Shown here: piece after piece, positions 1,503 to 60,466 of the stretch | Numbering within the stretch: the first letter of the stretch is position 1 | Layout of the letters: each line of letters starts with the position of its first letter | Origin: Acidobacteriota bacterium | Lineage (GTDB): Bacteria > Acidobacteriota > Vicinamibacteria > Vicinamibacterales > UBA2999 | Assembly: GCA_021730945.1 (NCBI GenBank) | Contig: JAKFYH010000005.1 | Coordinates: forward strand, 34-64,033 | Direction of reading: 5' to 3' | DNA length: 64,000 nt | Notes under the pieces: model-generated | Database searches by the model: none | What the model was told of the DNA's origin: nothing | Seen by the model: only the letters and a program-made list of their open reading frames with translations | Translations under genes and position numbers: made by a program

Positions 1503-2462
1503 GTGACGGTGCTTCCTTCCCTGGCCGAGCGCGTTCGGGCCGGCGATGTCCGGGCCATCGCCCGCGCCATTTCGCTGATCGAAGACGAGGCCGAGTCGGC
1601 GGCCGGCCTGGTCCGCGACATCTTTCCCCACACCGGTCAGACCTACCTGGTCGGCGTCACCGGGCCGCCGGGGGCGGGGAAGAGTACGCTGGTGGACCGG
1701 CTGACCACCGTCACGCGCGCGGCCGACGAAACCGTCGGGGTCATCTGTGTCGATCCGACCAGTCCGTTCACGGGCGGCGCCATCCTCGGCGATCGCCTGC
1801 GCATGCAGGCGCACGCCCACGACGAACAGGTGTTCATCCGCAGCATGGCGACGCGTGGGCACATGGGTGGGCTGGCCCGGGCGACCAGCGATGCCGCGCT
1901 GGTGCTCGATGCCGCCGGCAAGTCGCTGGTGATCATCGAGACGGTCGGCGTCGGCCAGGATGAAGTGGATATTGTCCGCACGGCGGACATCTCGATCGTG
2001 GTCCTGGTGCCGGGGACCGGTGACGATGTGCAGGCGCTCAAGGCCGGGATCATGGAGATTGCCGACATCTTTGTGGTCAACAAGTGCGACCGCGACGGCG
2101 CCGACCGCATGGTGACATCGATCGAATCGAACCTGGCGTTGCAGGCCTACGGCGACGGCCAGTGGCGGCCGCCGATCGTCAAGACCGAGGCCACCACCGG
2201 CCACGGCGTCGCCGAGCTGTGGGCGACCGTGCAGCAGTTCCGGGCCCACTCGCAGAGCGCGCGGACGCGGCGCCTGAAGGCCCGCAACGAATTTCGCCTG
2301 CGCGACTTGCTGACCCATCGCTTCATGGAGATGGTCGAACGCGATTTGCTCGCCGCCGGCGAGTTCGACGCCCTGGTCGCGCGCATCGCCGCCAGGGAAG
2401 TCGACCCGTACACCGCCGCGTCGGAGATCCTGTCGCGCGCGCTCAAGTCCAGGACGAAATGA
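1503..2462 (+). CDS. meaB: Methylmalonyl-CoA mutase-associated GTPase (MeaB/ArgK family)
   Basis: P-loop GVTGPPGAGKSTL, ETVGVGQDE, NKCD. GTG 1503 lies just after the acd stop; start is approximate. Confidence 0.88.
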   Translation: MTVLPSLAERVRAGDVRAIARAISLIEDEAESAAGLVRDIFPHTGQTYLVGVTGPPGAGKSTLVDRLTTVTRAADETVGVICVDPTSPFTGGAILGDRLRMQAHAHDEQVFIRSMATRGHMGGLARATSDAALVLDAAGKSLVIIETVGVGQDEVDIVRTADISIVVLVPGTGDDVQALKAGIMEIADIFVVNKCDRDGADRMVTSIESNLALQAYGDGQWRPPIVKTEATTGHGVAELWATVQQFRAHSQSARTRRLKARNEFRLRDLLTHRFMEMVERDLLAAGEFDALVARIAAREVDPYTAASEILSRALKSRTK

Positions 2463-3724
2463 AAGCCATCCTCGATCACATCGGCATCGCGGTCAGCGAC
2501 CTGCCGGCATCACTCGCGTTCTTTCGCGACTCGCTGGGCCTGCACCTGGAGACCAGCGAGGAGATTGCCTCCCAGAAGGTGCGCGCCCATTTCCTGTCGA
2601 CCGGCCGTTCCTCGCTCGAGCTGCTCGAGGCCACGGCCAGCGATTCACCAATCGCCCGGTATCTCGACAAGCGCGGCCCAGGCATTCATCACCTGGCGCT
2701 TCGGGTGGACGACATCGAGGCGGCCCTGGCGCACCTCAAGGCCCGCGGCGTGCGCCTGATCGATGAGCGCCCCCGGCCGGGTGCCGAGGGCGCGCTGGTG
2801 GCCTTCATTCATCCGTCGGCGGCGCACGGCGTGCTGGTGGAACTCAAGCAGCCGGCGCCCGCCGTGCCGCTGTTTCGCACCGTGGCGCGCCATGGGCTCG
2901 GCGACCTGGAACTGGTCACGCTGTCGGATGGGTTCATCCATCTCGACGGTGGCGCCATGTTCGGCGTGGTGCCGCGTGCGTTGTGGGAGAAGCGCCTGCC
3001 GCCTGACGATGCCAACCGCATCCCGCTGGGGATGCGGCCGCTGATCGTGCGGGGCGCGCAGACGCTGCTGATCGATGCCGGCTGTGGCGACAAGATGGAC
3101 GCCCGCAGCGCGGCCATCTATGGCCTCGATCGCCGCTATCACCTCGACCACGCGCTGGCCGAGGCCGGGCTCGCCGTCGACGACATCGACATCGTCCTGG
3201 CCAGTCACCTGCACTTTGATCACGTTGGCGGATTCACGGCGAGGGCAGCCAATGGCGCGATCGTGCCGCGCTTCCCCAAGGCGCGTTACGTGGCGCACCG
3301 CGGGGAGTGGGAAGACGCCACGCATCCGCACGAGCGGAACCGGGCGAGTTACCTGCAGGAGAACTTCGTGCCGCTCCGGGAGGCCGGAGTCCTGACGCTG
3401 GTGGAAGAAGGCGCCGAGGTCATGCCCGGTGTGCGTTTCCGGTGGTCGGGCGGCCACACGCCGAATCACCAGGTGGTGATGATCGAGTCGGGAGGCAAGA
3501 CCGCCGTGTTCACGGCGGATATGTATCCGACCAGCGTGCACATCCCTGACGCATGGGGTATGGGCTACGATCTCTACCCGATGGATACCCTGGCCTTCAA
3601 GCGGGCGTTCGCCGCCGAAGCCATCGCGCGCGAGTACCTGCTGTTCTTCGAGCACGATCCCTCGATGGCGGCCGGTTACTTGCGCGAGTCGGCAGGCAAG
3701 CGGGTCGTCGAGCGGGTCATTTGA
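2459..3724 (+). CDS. Methylmalonyl-CoA epimerase (VOC/glyoxalase domain) fused in frame to an MBL-fold metallo-hydrolase
   Basis: The N-terminal ~132 aa ([12 protein letters not shown]...GIHHLAL...GVLVELKQ) are MCE-like. From about aa 150 ([23 protein letters not shown]...[12 protein letters not shown]) the sequence is beta-lactamase fold with HxHxDH. No stop between the two; ATGA overlap with meaB. Confidence 0.8.
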
Positions 3725-4596
3725 TGGAGAGCGCAATGCCGGTGCGGATTGGAATCATTGGTGGCAGCGGCCTGTACGACATGGCCGAGCTCACGGACCG
3801 CGAGGAGCGGGTGTTGACCACGCCGTTTGGCGAGCCGTCCGGGCCGTTTGTCCTGGCCACGCTGCGCGGCAAGCGGGTCGCGTTTCTCGCCCGCCATGGC
3901 GCTGGCCACCGGCTGACGCCGACCGAATTGAACTATCGCGCCAACATCTTCGGCATGAAGATGCTGGGTGTCGAGTGGATCGTGTCGGCGAGTGCGGTGG
4001 GAAGCCTGCAGGAGCAGTATCGGCCGATGGACCTGGTGTTTCCCGACCAGTTCATCGATCGCACGCGCAGCCGCATCAGCACGTTCTTCGGCGACGGCCT
4101 GGTCGCCCACGTCGGCTTCGCGCACCCGCTCAGCCATCACCTCTCCACGCTGGCGGCTGACTGCGCGGCGGCGGTGGGGGCGCGCGTGCATCGCGGCGGC
4201 ACCTACGTCTGCATGGAGGGTCCGCAGTTCTCCACCCTCGCCGAGTCGCGGCTGTACCGGACGTGGGGCGCCGACGTCATTGGCATGACCAACCTGCAGG
4301 AAGCCAAGCTGGCGCGCGAGGCCGAGATCGCCTACTCGACCATGGCGCTGGTGACCGACTACGACTGCTGGCACCCCGAGCACGACTCGGTGACGGTGGA
4401 GATGATCATCAACAACCTGACCGAGAACGCGCGGACGGCGCAGCAGGTCATTGCCCGGGTGGTCGAGACGCTCGACGCCGGCGTCCGCGATCCCGCGCAT
4501 AGCGCGCTGGCGACCGCCATCATCACCCGTCCCGACGCGATTCCCGAGACCACCCGGCGCGCTCTTGCGCCCATTATCGGCAAGTACATCAAATGA
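3724..4596 (+). CDS. mtnP: S-methyl-5'-thioadenosine phosphorylase (PNP family 2)
   Basis: [15 protein letters not shown]...FLARHG..H...P..NYRANI...GMT. ATG 3724 overlaps the upstream stop; ATG 3736 is an alternative. Confidence 0.88.
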
Positions 4597-47582: not shown

Positions 47583-48824
<1,242 letters not shown>

Positions 48825-48918
48825 CGGTGTCAGACACCGTTCCAGAATTTGCGTACTTCGCAAGCTGGGATAGTCACGACGCCGAAGTACGCAAATTCTG
48901 GAAGGGTGTCTGACACCG
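48825..48918. mobile_element. 94-nt inverted-repeat element (MITE-like) or giant regulatory hairpin in the fabF/etfB junction
   Basis: 36-nt arms (48825-48860 and 48883-48918) are complementary at 35/36, with a 22-nt loop. TGA on both flanks. AT-richer than the surroundings. Confidence 0.55.
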
Positions 48919-49679
48919 TGAAGATCGCAGTCTGTATCAAGCAAGTGCCGACCCGGGAGTGGCAGCCGCGCCTGAACGACGATCAGACGTGGGTCCGCGA
49001 CCAGGATGTCAGCTACGAAATGAACGAGCCCGACGCCTATGCGCTCGAAGAGAGCCTGCGGCTCCGTGAGAAGCATGGCGGCGAGGTGGTCGTATGCTCG
49101 GCCGGACCGGCGAGGGTGCAACAGGTGATTCGCGAGGCCCTGGCCCGCGGCGCCGACCGCGCGCTGCACGTCGAGGACGATGCCCTGGGGGCGGCTGACG
49201 CGTTTACCGCGGCGTCGGCGCTGGCGCCGGCGATGGCCGAGCAGCAGTTCGATCTGATTCTCACGGGCCTGCAGTCGGACGACCAGGGCCACGCGCAGTT
49301 CGGGCCGGTACTGGCCGAGAAGCTGGGCATGCCGCACTCCACCATCATCATGGAAGTGCTCGTCGATGGCGCGAACCTCAAGGTGAAGCGCGAGCTCGAA
49401 GGCGGCTGGTTCCAGCACGTGGCCATGCCGCTGCCGGCGCTGCTGACCATCCAGAGCGGCATCAACCAGCTGCGCTATGCCACGCTCAAAGGCATCATGG
49501 CGGCGAAGAAGAAGGAGATCGCCAGGGCGGCGGCGCCGGGTGGGTTGACGCCGCGCCTGAAGATCGTGGCGCTCAGCGCGCCGCAGAAGTCGAAGCAGAC
49601 GGTCATGATTGGCGGATCGCCGGCCGATGCCGCGAAGGAACTGGTCAAGCGGCTGCGCGAAGAAGCGAGGGTCCTGTGA
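48918..49679 (+). CDS. etfB: Electron transfer flavoprotein beta subunit
   Basis: V(M)KIAVCIKQVP... is a canonical EtfB N-terminus. The upstream part of the track ORF (from 48849) lies within the hairpin element. Confidence 0.9.
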   Translation: MKIAVCIKQVPTREWQPRLNDDQTWVRDQDVSYEMNEPDAYALEESLRLREKHGGEVVVCSAGPARVQQVIREALARGADRALHVEDDALGAADAFTAASALAPAMAEQQFDLILTGLQSDDQGHAQFGPVLAEKLGMPHSTIIMEVLVDGANLKVKRELEGGWFQHVAMPLPALLTIQSGINQLRYATLKGIMAAKKKEIARAAAPGGLTPRLKIVALSAPQKSKQTVMIGGSPADAAKELVKRLREEARVL

Positions 49680-50647
49680 TTCTCGTCATCGCGGAACAAC
49701 AACAGGGCAAGCTGAATCGAGCCAGTTGGGAAGCCATTGCGGCCGCCCAACAGCTTTCTGGCGGCGCCATGCCGATCAAGGTGGCCGTGGCTGGGAGCGG
49801 CGTCGCGGCCGTGGCGGCAGAACTCGCCCAGGCGGACGTCGCCGAGGTGTTGACGCTCGACAGCCCGGCGCTGGCCGTCTACACGCCCGACGGCTTCGTA
49901 CAAGCCTTTCAGCAGGTGATTGCGCAGGTCGCACCGGCGTACGTGTTCTTCTCGCACACCTACCAGACGCGCGACTTCTCGCCGACACTGGCGACGCGCA
50001 TGGATCGCGCGCTGGTGACCGACGTGATCGCCATCCGGCCGGTGGGCGGCGCCACCGCGTTCGCGCGGCCGATGTTCCAGGGCAAGCTCGTGGCCGATGT
50101 CGTGCCGCAGGGCGAGGGCCCGTTCCTGATCAGTATCCAGATCGGTGCTTATCGCGCCGATGCGGCGACGAAGGGTAGCGCGGCGGCGCCGATTGCGGCG
50201 GCCAGCGTCACGATCGACGAAGCGAAGATTCGCCAGAAGCCCGAGGCGCCGTTCCAGGAGGCCAAGCAGGCCGTCGACCTGTCGCAGGCCGAGCGGATTG
50301 TTTCGGTCGGCCGCGGCATCAAGGCGGTGGAGAACATCGCCATCGCCGAACAGCTGGCCAAGGCCTTCGGCGCTGAGCTGGCGGCTTCGCGGCCAATCTG
50401 TGACAACGGCTGGCTGCCCATGGAGCGGCAGATCGGCAGCTCGGGCCAGACCGTGGCGCCGAAGCTGTATGTCGCGCTCGGTATCTCGGGCGCCATCCAG
50501 CACCTGGTTGGCATGAAAGGCTCGCGCGTGATCGTCGCCATCAACAAGGATGCCGACGCCCCGATCTTCGAGGTGGCCGACTACGGCATCCAGGGCGACC
50601 TGTTCGAGCTGGCGCCGGCAATTATCGCGGAACTCCAGAAGGCTTGA
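49676..50647 (+). CDS. etfA: Electron transfer flavoprotein alpha subunit
   Basis: GTGA overlap; C-terminal FAD-binding region ...VSVGRG...PKLYVALGISGAIQHLVGM.... Confidence 0.9.
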   Translation: MILVIAEQQQGKLNRASWEAIAAAQQLSGGAMPIKVAVAGSGVAAVAAELAQADVAEVLTLDSPALAVYTPDGFVQAFQQVIAQVAPAYVFFSHTYQTRDFSPTLATRMDRALVTDVIAIRPVGGATAFARPMFQGKLVADVVPQGEGPFLISIQIGAYRADAATKGSAAAPIAAASVTIDEAKIRQKPEAPFQEAKQAVDLSQAERIVSVGRGIKAVENIAIAEQLAKAFGAELAASRPICDNGWLPMERQIGSSGQTVAPKLYVALGISGAIQHLVGMKGSRVIVAINKDADAPIFEVADYGIQGDLFELAPAIIAELQKA

Positions 50648-53191: not shown

Positions 53192-53299
53192 GACCGAGCA
53201 GGCAGAACCCGAAAACGAGAGTGCCCATTAACGATCGTCACTCTCGTTTCCGGGTTCTACCTGCTCGGTCAGGCCGGTTGGGAGAACACCAACCGGCCT
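53192..53299 (-). ncRNA. Candidate structured RNA or REP-like element: 32-bp helix plus an adjacent perfect 11-bp hairpin
   Basis: Arms 53192-53223 and 53239-53270 are complementary at 30/32, and both mismatches are G-U pairs only if transcribed from the minus strand. Second hairpin: 53271-53281 with 53289-53299. Confidence 0.35.
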
Positions 53300-57013: not shown

Positions 57014-57943
57014 ATGCCGTTAGTTCTCGTCAGCTCACCCCGATTTGTCGATCACGTCACGCCTGCTGGACACCCGGAGCGGCCGGAGCGCGCCGAGACG
57101 CTTGAGGCGGTCGCCGCTCGGTTCCGAGAGACCGGCGGCATGGTGTTGGAGCCGCGATCGGCCACCGACGACGACCTCGCCCGGATCCATACGCGGGAGC
57201 ACATCGCCGGCATCGCGGCGAGGCGGGGCCGGGCCTCGATGATCGACGAGGACACGTTCACATCGCCCGAGTCCGACGACATCGCCAGGCTGGCGGCGGG
57301 CGCCGTCCTCACCGCCGTGGACCAAGTGCTCGACGGCCCGGCCGGCTCCCGGGCCCTCGCGTTGGTGCGGCCGCCCGGCCACCACGCCGAGGCCGACAAG
57401 GCGATGGGCTTTTGCCTCTACAACAACATCGCCGTCGGCGCGGCCTACGCGCGTTCGCGCGGCCTGTCGCGGGTCGCCATCGTCGACTACGACGTGCACC
57501 ACGGCAATGGCACGCAGTGGAGCTTCTATGATGACCCGGCGGTGCTGTTTGTCTCGTCGCATCAGTTCCCGTTCTACCCGGGCACCGGCGCGGCGTCAGA
57601 AACCGGACGAGGCGCCGGACTGGGCTTCACGCTGAACGTGCCTCTCACCATGGGCGATCGAGACGAGGTGGTGGAGCGGACCTACGCAGAGGTGGTGTTG
57701 CCTCGTCTCCGCGAGTTCAAGCCCGAACTGCTGATGATCTCCGCCGGGTTCGACGCCCACGAGATGGACCCGCTGGGGCAACTGCGCATGACCACCGCCG
57801 GCTTTGCCCGCCTCACCAAGGCGCTGCTCGGCGTCGCCGACCAGGTATGCCAGGGCAAGGTGGTGTTGGTCACCGAAGGCGGTTACGACCTGCAGGCCCT
57901 CTCAGACAGCCTGGATGCGGTGATCGAGGTCTTGAGGGCTTGA
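57014..57943 (+). CDS. Histone deacetylase-family (acetoin utilisation/acetylpolyamine amidohydrolase-like) protein
   Basis: RPPGHHAE...GFCLYNNIAV...DYDVHHGNGTQ...EGGY. Confidence 0.9.
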   Translation: MPLVLVSSPRFVDHVTPAGHPERPERAETLEAVAARFRETGGMVLEPRSATDDDLARIHTREHIAGIAARRGRASMIDEDTFTSPESDDIARLAAGAVLTAVDQVLDGPAGSRALALVRPPGHHAEADKAMGFCLYNNIAVGAAYARSRGLSRVAIVDYDVHHGNGTQWSFYDDPAVLFVSSHQFPFYPGTGAASETGRGAGLGFTLNVPLTMGDRDEVVERTYAEVVLPRLREFKPELLMISAGFDAHEMDPLGQLRMTTAGFARLTKALLGVADQVCQGKVVLVTEGGYDLQALSDSLDAVIEVLRA

Positions 57944-58001
57944 GGGCTTGGAGGCTTGGAAGTCAGCGTCCCAAGTCCCCAGGTCCCCAAGTCTCCAAGC
58001 C
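57931..58001. repeat. Two opposed arrays of four 8-mers (cttgRRgg x4, 7-nt spacer, cccaRgtc x4) forming an imperfect hairpin
   Basis: cttgaggg cttgaggg cttggagg cttggaag tcagcgt cccaagtc cccaggtc cccaagtc tccaagcc. The deacetylase TGA (57941-43) lies inside it. Confidence 0.8.
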
Positions 58002-58027
58002 CCGTACGGTATTCTTAAAGAATCACC

Positions 58028-60466
58028 GTGGCTGACTATCATCCCCAAGAGCTCGACAAGAAATGGCAGAAGCACTGGGACGACACCCAGGCGTTTGAAG
58101 TCACCGAAGACCCCTCGAAGCCGAAGTTCTACTGTCTCGAGATGTTCGCGTACCCCTCGGGTCACGCGCACGTCGGGCATGTCCGCAACTACATCATCGG
58201 CGACGTCGTCTCGCGGCTGAAGCGGCTGCAGGGCTTCAACGTGCTGCACCCGTTCGGGTGGGACGCCTTCGGCCTGCCGGCCGAGAACGCCGCGATCAAG
58301 AGCGGCATTCATCCCGAAACGTCTACGCTCGGCAACATCAGCCACATGAAGGGGCAGTTGCAGCGGCTGGGCATCAGCTATGCCTGGGGCCGGGAACTGG
58401 CCACCTGTCTGCCGGACTACTACCGCTGGAACCAATGGCTGTTCACGCGCATGTTCGAGAAGGGCCTGGCCTATCGCCGCCGCTCGACCGTGAACTGGTG
58501 CCCGGTGGATGCCACCGTTCTGGCCAACGAACAAGTGGTCGACGGCGCCTGCTGGCGGTGCGGCACCGCCGTCATCCAGAAGGACCTGGAGCAGTGGTTC
58601 TTCAAGATCACGCACTACGCCGACGACCTGCTCCATGCCGCCGAGGGCCTGTCGAAGTGGCCTGAGAAGGTCCTGACGATGCAGCGAAACTGGATCGGGC
58701 GTTCGGAAGGCGCCAAGGTCCGGTTCCCGATCGAGGGCGCCGAGGGGACCATCGAGGTCTTCACCACACGCATCGACACCATCTACGGCGCCACCTTCAT
58801 GATGCTGGCGCCCGAGCACGCCCTGGTCGCGTCGCTCGCGAAAGAGTCTGAGGACGAGACGGCGTTCATGGCGAACGTGCAGCGGTTCCGGTCGCAGGAT
58901 CGCGCCGGCCGCCTGACCGGGGAGGTTGAGAAGGAAGGCTTCTTCACCGGCCGCTTCGTCATCAACCCGTTCACGAACACGCCCATTCCGATTTGGGTCG
59001 CCAACTACGTGCTTGCCGAATACGGCACCGGCGCGGTGATGGGTGTCGCGGCTCACGACGACCGCGATCGCGAGTTCGCGACCAAGTACGACCTGCCGAT
59101 TGTTCCGGTCGTGAACGACCAGGACGTGCTGATCGATTCAGGGAAGTACACCGGCATGCCCTCGGCCGAGGCGATGAGGGCCATCACCGAGGAAGCGGAG
59201 GAGCGCGGCATCGGCGAGGGCACGGTGCAGTTTCGCCTCAAGGACTGGGGCATCTCGCGCCAGCGCTACTGGGGCACGCCGATCCCGATGATTCATTGCC
59301 CGGTCGACGGCGTGGTGCCGGTGCCGGACGATCAGCTGCCGGTCACGCTGCCGGCGATCACCGAGTTCACCGGCCGCGGCGATTCACCGCTGGCCAGCGT
59401 GCCGGAGTTTGTCAACGTGGCGTGCCCGAAGTGCGGCGGCCCGGCCCGGCGCGAGACCGACACCATGGACACGTTCGTCGACTCGTCCTGGTATTTCTAC
59501 CGCTTCGCCGACGCGCACAACGACCAGATGCCGTTCGATCCGAAAAAGGTCGCCTACTGGTGTCCGGTGGATTTCTACAGTGGCGGCGTCGAGCACGCCA
59601 TCCTGCACCTGATCTACTCGCGCTTCTTCGCCCGCGTCTTCCATGACCTGGGCATGACCGAACACACCGAGCCGTTCACCCACTTGCTGACCCAGGGCAT
59701 GGTGCTCAAAGACGGCGCCGTGATGTCGAAGTCGAAGGGCAATGTCGTCGATCCCGACTCGATGATCGAGAAGTACGGGTCGGACGCGCTGCGCCTCTAC
59801 GTCATGTTTGTGGCGCCGCCGGAGAAGGAAGTCGAGTGGTCCGACTCGGGCCTCGATGGCAGCTTCCGTTTCCTGGCCCGCGTGTGGCGCGCCGCCGACC
59901 AGTGGCGCGACCAGGTGCTGGCCAGTGGCGGTGGCGCGATCGACCAGGCCAGCCTGACCGCCGCCGAGCGCGGCCTCCGGCGCAAGACCCACGACACCAT
60001 TCGCCGCGTCACCCAGGACATCGACGTCCGCCAGCAGATGAACACGGCGGTGTCGGCAATGATGGAGCTGGTCAACGAGCTGTACGCCTTTACCGACAAG
60101 GGTGAGCGGTCGGCGCAGGCGCCGAAGGTGGCGCGCGAGGCGATCGAGTCGCTGATTGTCATGTTGTCGCCGTTCTCGCCGCACACCATGGAGGAGCTGT
60201 GGCAGATGTACGGGCACGCCGGGGACCTGGCCACGGCGGCCTGGCCGGTGTTCGACGCCGTGGTCGCCAAGGCCGAGGAACTGGAGATCCCGGTCCAGGT
60301 GAACGGCAAGCTGCGGGGCCGGGTGACCGCGCCGCCCGAGATCGACGACCGGGCGCTCGAGGCCCTGGCGCTGGCCGACCCGCACGTGCAGGCGCACGTG
60401 GCCGGCAAGACCATCAAGAAGGTCGTGATTGCCAAGGGTCGCCTGGTTTCGATTGTTGTGGCCTAA
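58028..60466 (+). CDS. leuS: Leucine--tRNA ligase
   Basis: HIGH-type motif (PSGHAHVGH), KMSKS-type motif (VMSKSKGN), and a CP1 editing domain. Confidence 0.95.

Follow-up and report, generated by a model that had tools for sequence, protein, structure and literature searches.

A REPIN-type hairpin doublet at the fabF/etfB junction of an Acidobacteriota bacterium and the dispersed repeat family to which it belongs

Repetitive extragenic palindromic (REP) sequences that form inverted doublets (REPINs) and the REP-associated tyrosine transposases (RAYTs) have been argued to be long-lived, vertically inherited partners of the genomes that carry them, and to our knowledge they have been studied almost only in Proteobacteria. 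The element described here lies between fabF and etfB in a 64-kb stretch of DNA from an Acidobacteriota bacterium (contig JAKFYH010000005.1; hereafter the window, along the whole of which positions are counted). It is a REPIN-type doublet, or dimer of terminal inverted repeats (TIRs), and a non-autonomous derivative of a RAYT/TIRYT unit. We put at roughly 0.78 the probability of the full reading, in which a doublet from a RAYT/TIRYT family landed in the overlap that coupled fabF to etfB, has been kept vertically since, and likely uncouples etfB.

RAREFAN recognizes REPIN-RAYT systems by inverted REPs no more than 130 bp apart and by a REP no more than 200 bp from a RAYT (10.1101/2022.05.22.493013; see also PMC3116915; PMC3337134). 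A related system is the TIRtron, in which a RAYT-like TIRYT gene is situated between long TIRs, and these TIRs are in addition found elsewhere, singly or as dimers, in moderate abundance; TIRYTs include a sharply defined acidobacterial group from Koribacter versatilis, Terriglobus saanensis, Acidobacterium capsulatum and Granulicella mallensis (Di Nocera et al. 2013, PMC3733652).

At the locus in the window, fabF (beta-ketoacyl-ACP synthase II; 47,583–48,824 in the list of open reading frames (ORFs); TIGR03150, 650 bits, E = 7e-196) ends in a TGA (48,822–48,824) that directly adjoins the element, and etfB (electron transfer flavoprotein beta subunit; 48,918–49,679) starts at a GTG rebuilt from the last G of the element and a following TG; all features are on the plus strand unless stated otherwise. 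Two 36-nt arms (48,825–48,860 and 48,883–48,918) are reverse-complementary at 35 of 36 positions, with one mismatch, and are separated by a 22-nt spacer (48,861–48,882) that forms the hairpin loop and evolves fast by comparison with orthologous copies. The two arms are thus inverted and 22 nt apart, inside the RAREFAN spacing. The inverted-repeat finder adds one A/T pair and returns 37-nt arms at 97% (48,824–48,860, and 48,883–48,919 on the minus strand). Each arm is one REP unit, the left one running from its outer palindrome inward and the right one inverted, and both are matched by an nhmmer arm profile (E = 4.8e-13 and 1.1e-12, respectively). A second TGA (48,919–48,921) has two possible readings: it repeats the fabF stop directly over 3 nt, or it extends the right end of the element, CACCG-TGA. 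The element has a G+C fraction of 0.48–0.54 versus 0.63–0.72 in the flanks, and the 36-mer arm has no match at three or fewer mismatches in 100 dinucleotide-preserving shuffles of the window. The arms, the loop, their AT-richness, the TGA on both sides and the rebuilt GTG had been described in an earlier note on this DNA, made from the sequence alone, and the description holds, as does its claim that excision gives a stop/start overlap: in-silico removal of 48,825–48,921 yields GAAGAATGAAGATCGCAGTC. From the fabF stop to the etfB start there are 96 nt, in a common frame and with zero stop codons between.

The REP-like unit of about 36 nt comprises a terminal palindrome, ACGGTGTCAGACACCGT, and a conserved tail, TTCCAGAAT(C/T)TGCGTAC, with a conserved GTAC located 13 nt from the foot of the hairpin. 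The outer 15–17 nt of every arm are themselves palindromic, (A)CGGTGTC-A-GACACCG(T), and the perfect 8-1-8 form is ACGGTGTC-A-GACACCGT. By our reading of the sequence, CGGTGTC-A-GACACCG in the left arm (48,825–48,839, without strand) is the REP core, and this is the best-kept segment of 39/39 arms. The right arm includes a Shine-Dalgarno (SD)-like GGAAGGG (48,899–48,905), whose function we infer, followed by the GTG TCT GAC ACC of the terminal palindrome (48,906–48,917), which is in the etfB frame and would encode V/M-S-D-T. The gene after the element matches EtfB-type NCBIfam models with scores below their cut-offs, and its relatives carry the Pfam ETF domain PF01012; the N-terminus (M/V)KIAVCIKQVPT is kept in all relatives, the nearest match in the protein collection has 94% identity, and the gene order continues with etfA and then ETF-QO.

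The element belongs to a dispersed Acidobacteriota repeat family. A species-representative genome collection and metagenomes were scanned with an exact 22-mer of the outer arm in which the single mismatched position was left free. Exact 22-mer matches occur at 19 loci (L- and P-numbers are our handles for loci and proteins), 8 in genomes and 11 in metagenomes. The named hosts are all Acidobacteriota, mainly Vicinamibacterales; they include three Vicinamibacterales-type metagenome-assembled genomes (MAGs), two of which have three matches on separate contigs, and a Ca. Sulfopaludibacter MAG (Bryobacterales), of another class, has one copy. By the same 22-mer there are at least four loci in JBOGIV01, at least three in JBDTMB01 and one in the window. 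Some copies are two-arm hairpins of 84–100 nt (L001, L003, L014, L015), one is a doublet that has decayed (L005), others are lone arms (L002, L006/L017/L019, L007, L008, L013) or short forms (L011, L016), and 2 of about 14 independent loci are intragenic. Since the genes beside the copies are unrelated (ABC-2 permease/Wzt ATPase, oligopeptide ABC ATPase, RidA, HAD, GNAT and others), this is a dispersed family and not a locus-specific hairpin, which bears out the proposal in the earlier note of a small TIR element, for which that note took several copies with different flanks as a sign of mobility.

The only gene type found between family arms is a Y1/HUH (IS200-like, RAYT-type) transposase, which is so placed in four genomes. 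At L004 (identical to L012), two inverted arms about 700 bp apart enclose a 181-aa ORF that matches Pfam Y1_Tnp above the cut-off (E = 3e-16), and inverted arms likewise enclose proteins 63–77% identical to the L004 protein at L027/L028, L029/L030 and L031. At all four of these sites an arm stands on each side of the gene, about 70–110 nt upstream and 30–90 nt downstream (nhmmer E = 1e-7 to 1e-12), which is within the RAREFAN distance between RAYT and REP. In the MAG JBOGIV01 an arm-flanked transposase (L027) occurs together with copies dispersed elsewhere (L003, L005, L008). Both histidines of the HWH motif and Tyr122, the putative catalytic tyrosine, are invariant among 27 aligned homologues. 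The AlphaFold model of the transposase (pLDDT 91.8) is closest to structure 4ER8 (E = 6.8e-9, TM score 0.64), which is E. coli TnpA-REP, a REP-associated tyrosine transposase, in complex with a REP hairpin, versus a TM score of 0.50 for the TnpA proteins of ISDra2 and IS608. A sequence search of the PDB gave weak matches to both RAYT and IS200-type TnpA and did not separate the two classes; the fold comparison favours RAYT. The neighbourhood M14 peptidase - ABA4-like - RAYT - membrane protein - DinB - PfkB is common to L004, L029 and L031, and a conserved chromosomal position is typical of RAYTs, unlike ordinary insertion sequence (IS) copies (PMC5581495).

Some further observations concern the transposase loci. 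At L027 the transposase unit follows DinB, displaced by about 1.5 kb, and does not lie between the ABA4-like and membrane-protein genes; the vacated junction (L027 960–1020) is an ATGA overlap with a degenerate palindrome, ACCGTATCAGACACG, that encodes TVSDT in the N-terminus of the membrane protein. This palindrome is either what relocation left behind or a solo unit of some age. On the L013 contig, copies of a different inverted repeat, GGGGCCTGGCACGGTTAC... (472–502 and 1228–1258), enclose another RAYT-type gene, whose product has 39% identity with the L004 protein; this gene was dropped as a partner of the family in the window on account of that repeat. The L013 contig also has a single arm of our family, and more than one transposase/repeat pair therefore coexists. 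An SD and start codon in longer arm variants, GGAGAAATTC(G/A)TGCC, were rejected as the transposase start because the RAYT ORF begins about 80–110 nt further in.

When EtfB relatives were traced to their contigs and the junctions compared, an empty site was found. In L026, fabF and etfB overlap by four bases, GTGA, in ...CAAGAGTGAAGATAGC (...CAA GAG TGA AGA TAG...), and the filled site in the window is exactly 97 nt longer, corresponding to the 94-nt core and one TGA. The earlier note had anticipated an orthologous empty site with an ATGA overlap; the four-base overlap is there, although as GTGA. The element is present at the orthologous junction in L010, L009 and L018, whose coding DNA is 83–89% identical to that of the window and which are therefore from different species. 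Among the 72 arm positions, L009 and L018 each differ from the window at 1 and L010 at 6 (arms 92–99% identical), against about 19, 22 and 22 differences, respectively, expected at the third-codon-position rate (etfB third-position identity with the window 0.74, 0.69 and 0.70; P for the observed number or fewer 9e-9, 7e-11 and 9e-6). The right arm matches that of the window at 36/36 positions in L009 and L018 and at 33/36 in L010, and over its outer 21 nt the four species show no difference at all. The spacers have 14/22 (L009), 15/23 (L018) and 18/22 (L010) positions in common with the window, and those of L009 and L018 resemble each other. The likeness of the window spacer to L010, and of L009 to L018, favours a single ancestral insertion at the junction. 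These alignments indicate an insertion inherited vertically by at least four species, the arms of which have stayed near constant as the spacer drifted at about the synonymous rate. In the earlier note, a single-copy hairpin conserved at this junction was what would have told against mobility; the element is indeed conserved here in four species, but the family is not single-copy.

What keeps the arms constant appears to act beyond this junction. Conservation extends to the sequence itself and is not confined to pairing, and single arms at another orthologous locus (L006, L017, L019) are near-invariant while their flanks diverge. This points to a family-wide constraint, such as transposase recognition or conversion between copies, and not to selection on the junction RNA helix alone. 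Two neighbour-joining trees were built, one from etfB only and one from the 3' part of fabF, etfB and the 5' part of etfA. In the etfB tree the four carriers and L024 form a clade with 100% bootstrap support, and in the tree of the concatenated sequences the window, L009 and L018 group firmly; both trees place these three together and L026 outside them.

Other hairpins occupy the same junction in related genomes. Six of the seven sampled relatives that do not have the element (L020–L025) carry a different hairpin-forming spacer of 70–170 nt there, and the seventh is the bare L026. The fillers are CACGGAAACACGG-type in L020, CGCGGAGACGCGGAGAC-type in L022 and, in L021, L023, L024 and L025, GGGCTTGAGG-like octamers in runs after which the complement comes, the filler of L024 being a long array of GGGCTTAAGGGCCTAA units and then its complement. 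With at least three unrelated hairpin-forming repeats in sister lineages, the fabF/etfB junction would seem to be a hot spot, or a permissive or favoured site, for palindromic repeats; such recurrent occupation is compatible with permissiveness and with benefit alike.

Two more hairpins are found in the window itself. One (57,944–58,002) is a GGGCTTGGAGG-type hairpin of the same kind as the junction fillers of L021, L023 and L025; it directly follows the TGA of an ORF (57,014–57,943) and precedes a gene at 58,028 that is a putative leucyl-tRNA synthetase, as read from its N-terminus alone. Hairpin repeats of a second family that adjoins stop codons are thus present in the source genome. The other (53,192–53,270) is a near-perfect hairpin with 37-nt arms, 89% complementary, and a 5-nt loop; it is apparently intergenic, and its sequence is unrelated to that of the element. 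Several EtfB relatives (P0004, P0013, P0017, P0078, P0082, P0117) have an in-frame insert of 7–15 residues, DPSTSSGQVAG and variants, after MEV.V (e.g., L024 1501–2283), which is not present in the EtfB of the window and which resembles a translated G+C-rich repeat.

How might the doublet have arrived, and what would it do in the transcript? A RAYT/TIRYT-type transposase is presumed to have moved the hairpin-forming doublet as single-stranded DNA. The doublet would have landed once in the 4-nt (A/G)TGA stop/start overlap that coupled fabF to etfB, and its end, ...CACC G/TGA (the slash marks the end of the element), would have rebuilt an in-frame GTG start, so that etfB survived. RNA from 48,800 to 48,945 folds at -78.1 kcal/mol, compared with -37.7 +/- 3.6 kcal/mol for shuffled sequences (z = -11.2), and the right arm is wholly paired in the predicted fold, GGAAGGG and the GTG at 48,918 included, in line with the earlier claim that the helix buries both. 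The 94-nt core RNA has a minimum free energy of -67.7 kcal/mol, and other two-arm copies of the family fold at -50 to -72 kcal/mol despite different spacers.

In E. coli, REPs act in mRNA 3'-end protection and attenuation, and translation is reduced when a REP is within about 15 nt of the stop codon; the work behind what we say of expression is reportedly that of Newbury (1987), Espeli (2001) and Liang, Rudd and Deutscher (2015). On a message that spans fab and etf, the hairpin (about -68 to -78 kcal/mol) would begin 0 nt after the fabF stop and would hide the SD-like GGAAGGG and the GTG of etfB. The element thus most likely breaks the translational coupling of fabF and etfB, as judged from the predicted fold. 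It would then lower or gate initiation at etfB and possibly set a stable 3' end for the fab message, and as a 3'-end barrier or processing site it may allow different expression levels for the fab genes, which are anabolic, and the etf genes, which are catabolic. No sigma-70 promoter was found in a scan of 48,500–49,200, and a candidate sigma-54 promoter at CTGGAA(G/C)GGTGTCTGAC was dismissed on visual inspection, as it lacks the -12 GC. A search of Rfam 15 (E up to 10, 48,000–49,800) returned only sub-threshold miRNA-like matches, of a sort that any long hairpin gives; the best (22 bits, where the gathering threshold is 57; E = 0.27) is to a model of a plant miRNA.

The earlier note had explained the flanking TGA triplets as a 3-bp target duplication. 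This is what a classical MITE (a miniature transposable element with inverted repeats) would produce, that is, an internally deleted derivative of a DDE-type IS moved by cut-and-paste with a 3-bp (TNA/TGA) duplication, and the long terminal inverted repeats, the short AT-richer body, the TGA found left and right of the element in the window and L010, the exact sum of empty site, 3 nt and 94 nt, and a transposase unit (L031) that also lies between TGA and TGA are all as this explanation would have them. However, an A precedes CGG in 38/39 arms, which places the true termini at ACGGTG...CACCGT; the inverted repeat therefore includes the A...T pair and with it two of the six "duplicated" bases. 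Only the window and L010 (TGA/TGA) and L031, one of three orthologous transposase units, show the 3-nt direct repeat, which is absent in the eight other independent two-arm units, the left/right triplets of which are TAA/TGC (L001), GGA/TCA (L003), GTA/TGA (L004), GTA/TCA (L014), CGA/TGA (L015), TAA/TCA (L016), GAA/TCA (L027) and GGA/TGC (L029). In several copies the left TGA is the upstream stop codon, and TAA takes its place in L001 and L016 and in the orthologous copies L009 and L018 (both TAA/TGA). The boundary between filled and empty site is ambiguous within TGA, where a 3-nt repeat and an element end in ...CACCGTGA, as seen in the window clade, L004, L031 and L015, both fit. A fixed 3-bp duplication is not a property of the family, in agreement with a Y1-type mechanism: Y1/HUH enzymes of the IS200/IS605 type act on single-stranded hairpins and make no target duplication. 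With no DDE transposase seen and a Y1/HUH gene between the arms in four genomes, we regard a MITE origin as very improbable. An operator for a dimeric transcription factor (e.g., a FadR-like lipid regulator), with the other copies marking its regulon, is suggested by a perfect 8-1-8 palindrome of 17 bp between fatty-acid genes. This idea was rejected, and we give it next to no credence: the genes beside other copies are functionally unrelated, the conserved unit runs about 20 nt past the palindrome, is oriented and is inverted around a transposase, and some copies are within coding regions.

Two further explanations concern what the hairpin does at the junction. The hairpin could have evolved in place as a cis-regulatory RNA dedicated to the fab-etf operon, whether as an attenuator, as a processing site or as a translational operator, the other copies being secondary. 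Conservation in four species with arms far above the level of synonymous sites, the coverage of the SD-like motif and start codon, and the other hairpin fillers in L020–L025, which hint that a hairpin is useful here, would all fit; but the same 32–36-nt sequence also occurs beside ABC transporters, RidA and GNAT and inside GH127 and flippase genes, it brackets a transposase, the sequence itself is conserved beyond its pairing, Rfam has no match to it, and L026 manages without any spacer. We therefore consider origin in place quite improbable. A selfish or neutral insertion that has no function at the junction, with arms kept similar by gene conversion or transposase-dependent maintenance, is a serious alternative, if one that we hold to be the less probable account. 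The family-wide constraint seen in the single arms of L006, L017 and L019, with their diverging flanks, and the loss of inner-arm pairing in L010 are as expected of a passenger, and most REP functions are regarded as incidental co-option (PMC3337134). Set against this, a stable hairpin 0 nt past a stop codon that covers the next start would be unlikely to be neutral for expression, judging by what is known of REPs in E. coli. The reading we prefer, a RAYT/TIRYT-family doublet that uncouples etfB, also has evidence weighing against it. The window has no second copy of the element by mismatch search or arm-profile search, and the MAGs have at least 3–5 loci each versus tens to hundreds in classical REPIN populations, the exact 22-mer being a strict filter. 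The GTAG/CTAC head is absent from both sides of the palindrome, and for this reason the TIR/TIRYT class (PMC3733652) fits better than the GTAG REPs. The best NCBIfam model for the L004 ORF is the REP-associated tyrosine transposase NF047646, at 60.7 bits versus a curated cut-off of 80. In the concatenate tree, L010, L024 and L023 join at similar depth, and the tree fits carriers that are monophyletic with respect to L024 and L023, which have other fillers, as well as carriers that are not, so that a single insertion followed by replacement is inseparable from monophyletic carriers. The inner arms of L010 have lost six pairings, and a full-length hairpin is thus not strictly required. A scan of 48,500–49,200 found no intrinsic terminator; the element is not a canonical one because no T-run follows the hairpin, which leads into GTGAAGATCGC, and a regulatory role is purely something that we infer. 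Lastly, the filled site at fabF/etfB does resemble a 3-nt duplication.

The family has an unusual relation to reading frames. The palindrome reads GTG TC(A/T) GAC ACC on both strands, with stop-free frames, and at five independent loci these codons share the frame of a downstream gene that runs in the same direction: etfB at the window junction, the Wzt ATPase gene at L001, the membrane-protein gene after the transposase unit at L004, L029 and L031, the oligopeptide ATPase gene at L006/L017/L019, whose N-terminal MSDTLL(R/T)VENL must start within the repeat, and the gene after HAD at L016, where GGAGGA is found 5 nt before TTG TCT GAC ACC. This agreement is in part arithmetic, as the boundary GTG is 12 nt after the internal GTG, and in part probably survivorship. 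An upstream stop codon directly abuts the CGG of an arm in four independent cases (the window clade, L001, L016 and L031). Inside genes that seem to be intact, an 84-nt doublet (L003 2412–2497) lies in frame in a GH127 beta-L-arabinofuranosidase gene (873-aa ORF, 1505–4126, minus strand), and 95 positions of the Pfam middle-domain profile are stretched over 135 residues at the doublet; an arrangement of stop codon, element and new gene at L003 was rejected, since Pfam shows one GH127 gene with the element in frame. A complete 84-nt doublet (L015 947–1030, protein P0241), in frame and stop-free, is likewise located in the hypervariable loop of a PF01943 polysaccharide flippase. In relatives, the same flippase loop has peptides that look like translated palindromic repeats, GFSRSSSA.IRL.AD in P0244 and P0251 and RDPGSEVRGSRIPDPGS in P0243.

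Start codons are affected as well. Public EtfB gene calls start within or upstream of the repeat (P0014, VSDTVKIAV...; P0019, MTPKYAISGRVSDTVKIAV...), and the element therefore leads to inconsistent annotation of the etfB start. It is conceivable, though on balance doubtful, that the family is pre-adapted to or strongly filtered for coding-dense DNA, able to land where a stop and a start overlap and donating in-frame starts or N-termini (VSDT...), a translatable 28-codon insert and, at fabF/etfB, a co-opted insulator. If so, the unrelated hairpins at this junction in sister lineages would reflect convergent selection for an insulator. In four other copies a -10-like hexamer directly adjoins the outer end of an arm (marked by a slash), in three cases 6–7 nt before an ATG: CACCG/TACAAT-ATTCGCA-ATG (L002 1678–1700), CACCG/TACAAT-AGACAC-ATG (L014 1270–1290, minus strand), CACCC/TATAAT-CGACAG-ATG (L011 8662–8680) and CACCG/TATACT (L013 6915–6927). 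These hexamers may be promoters of leaderless mRNAs beside the repeat, or they may reflect an insertion preference.

The element widens the host range of REPIN-RAYT systems with an example from an uncultured soil Acidobacteriota that has an identified transposase partner. An empty site together with several species that have the same insertion amounts to a natural time series for the persistence of an element, and the locus illustrates how a translationally coupled pair can be split while the downstream gene keeps a start codon. For annotation, it is a case in which gene callers place starts inside a repeat (VSDT...) or read through it. A junction with several unrelated palindromic fillers is also well suited to asking whether intercistronic hairpins are selected or tolerated.

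Among known hairpin repeats, the Correia elements of Neisseria and the enterobacterial repetitive intergenic consensus (ERIC) or intergenic repeat unit (IRU) sequences are long near-perfect hairpins co-transcribed with flanking genes, where RNase III processing or altered mRNA stability is possible, much as the earlier note proposed for the element, and they have DDE-type features, e.g., the TA duplication of Correia elements. The element in the window, known here from DNA alone, is a long near-perfect hairpin too. With the Rickettsia palindromic elements (RPEs) the family has in common two independent copies that lie in frame inside genes (L003, L015); the copy in the window is intergenic, however, and RPEs have a CGTC head and no known transposase (PMC3733652).

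The likeness to REPIN-RAYT systems, for which the comparators were the GI–GIII REPINs of Pseudomonas fluorescens SBW25 and the REP/bacterial interspersed mosaic element (BIME) sequences of E. coli with TnpA-REP/YafM, extends to most features of the family. Two inverted palindromic units form a hairpin of about 90 nt (89 bp for SBW25 GI, PMC3337134), spacers vary yet folding is kept, singlets occur beside doublets, a Y1/HUH transposase gene has units on either side and (here in three genomes) keeps its chromosomal neighbours, the partner has a fold closest to 4ER8, and the copies show no consistent target duplication and persist at orthologous sites across species. In contrast to REPIN-RAYT systems, our family has no GTAG head, a longer unit (about 32–36 nt), a low apparent copy number and a transposase that scores below the NCBIfam RAYT cut-off, and its hosts are Acidobacteriota, whereas RAYT groups 2 and 3, those that form REPINs, are described mainly from Enterobacteria and Pseudomonas (10.1101/2022.05.22.493013). 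TIRtrons differ in their turn: those described are from Terriglobia (PMC3733652), whereas Vicinamibacteria are the main hosts of our family, a Bryobacterales MAG having one copy, and the GGGGWSAS motif of several TIRtron TIRs is absent from its arms, the likeness being judged by description and not by sequence. Like TIRtrons, however, the family has a RAYT-like gene between long TIRs without GTAG, TIRs found as singles, dimers or groups, self-complementary tracts such as are present in some TIRtron TIRs, and acidobacterial hosts. What is new is thus a family in an under-studied phylum; the form that it takes, a REPIN or TIR dimer of a RAYT/TIRYT unit, is a known one and mechanistically not unexpected.

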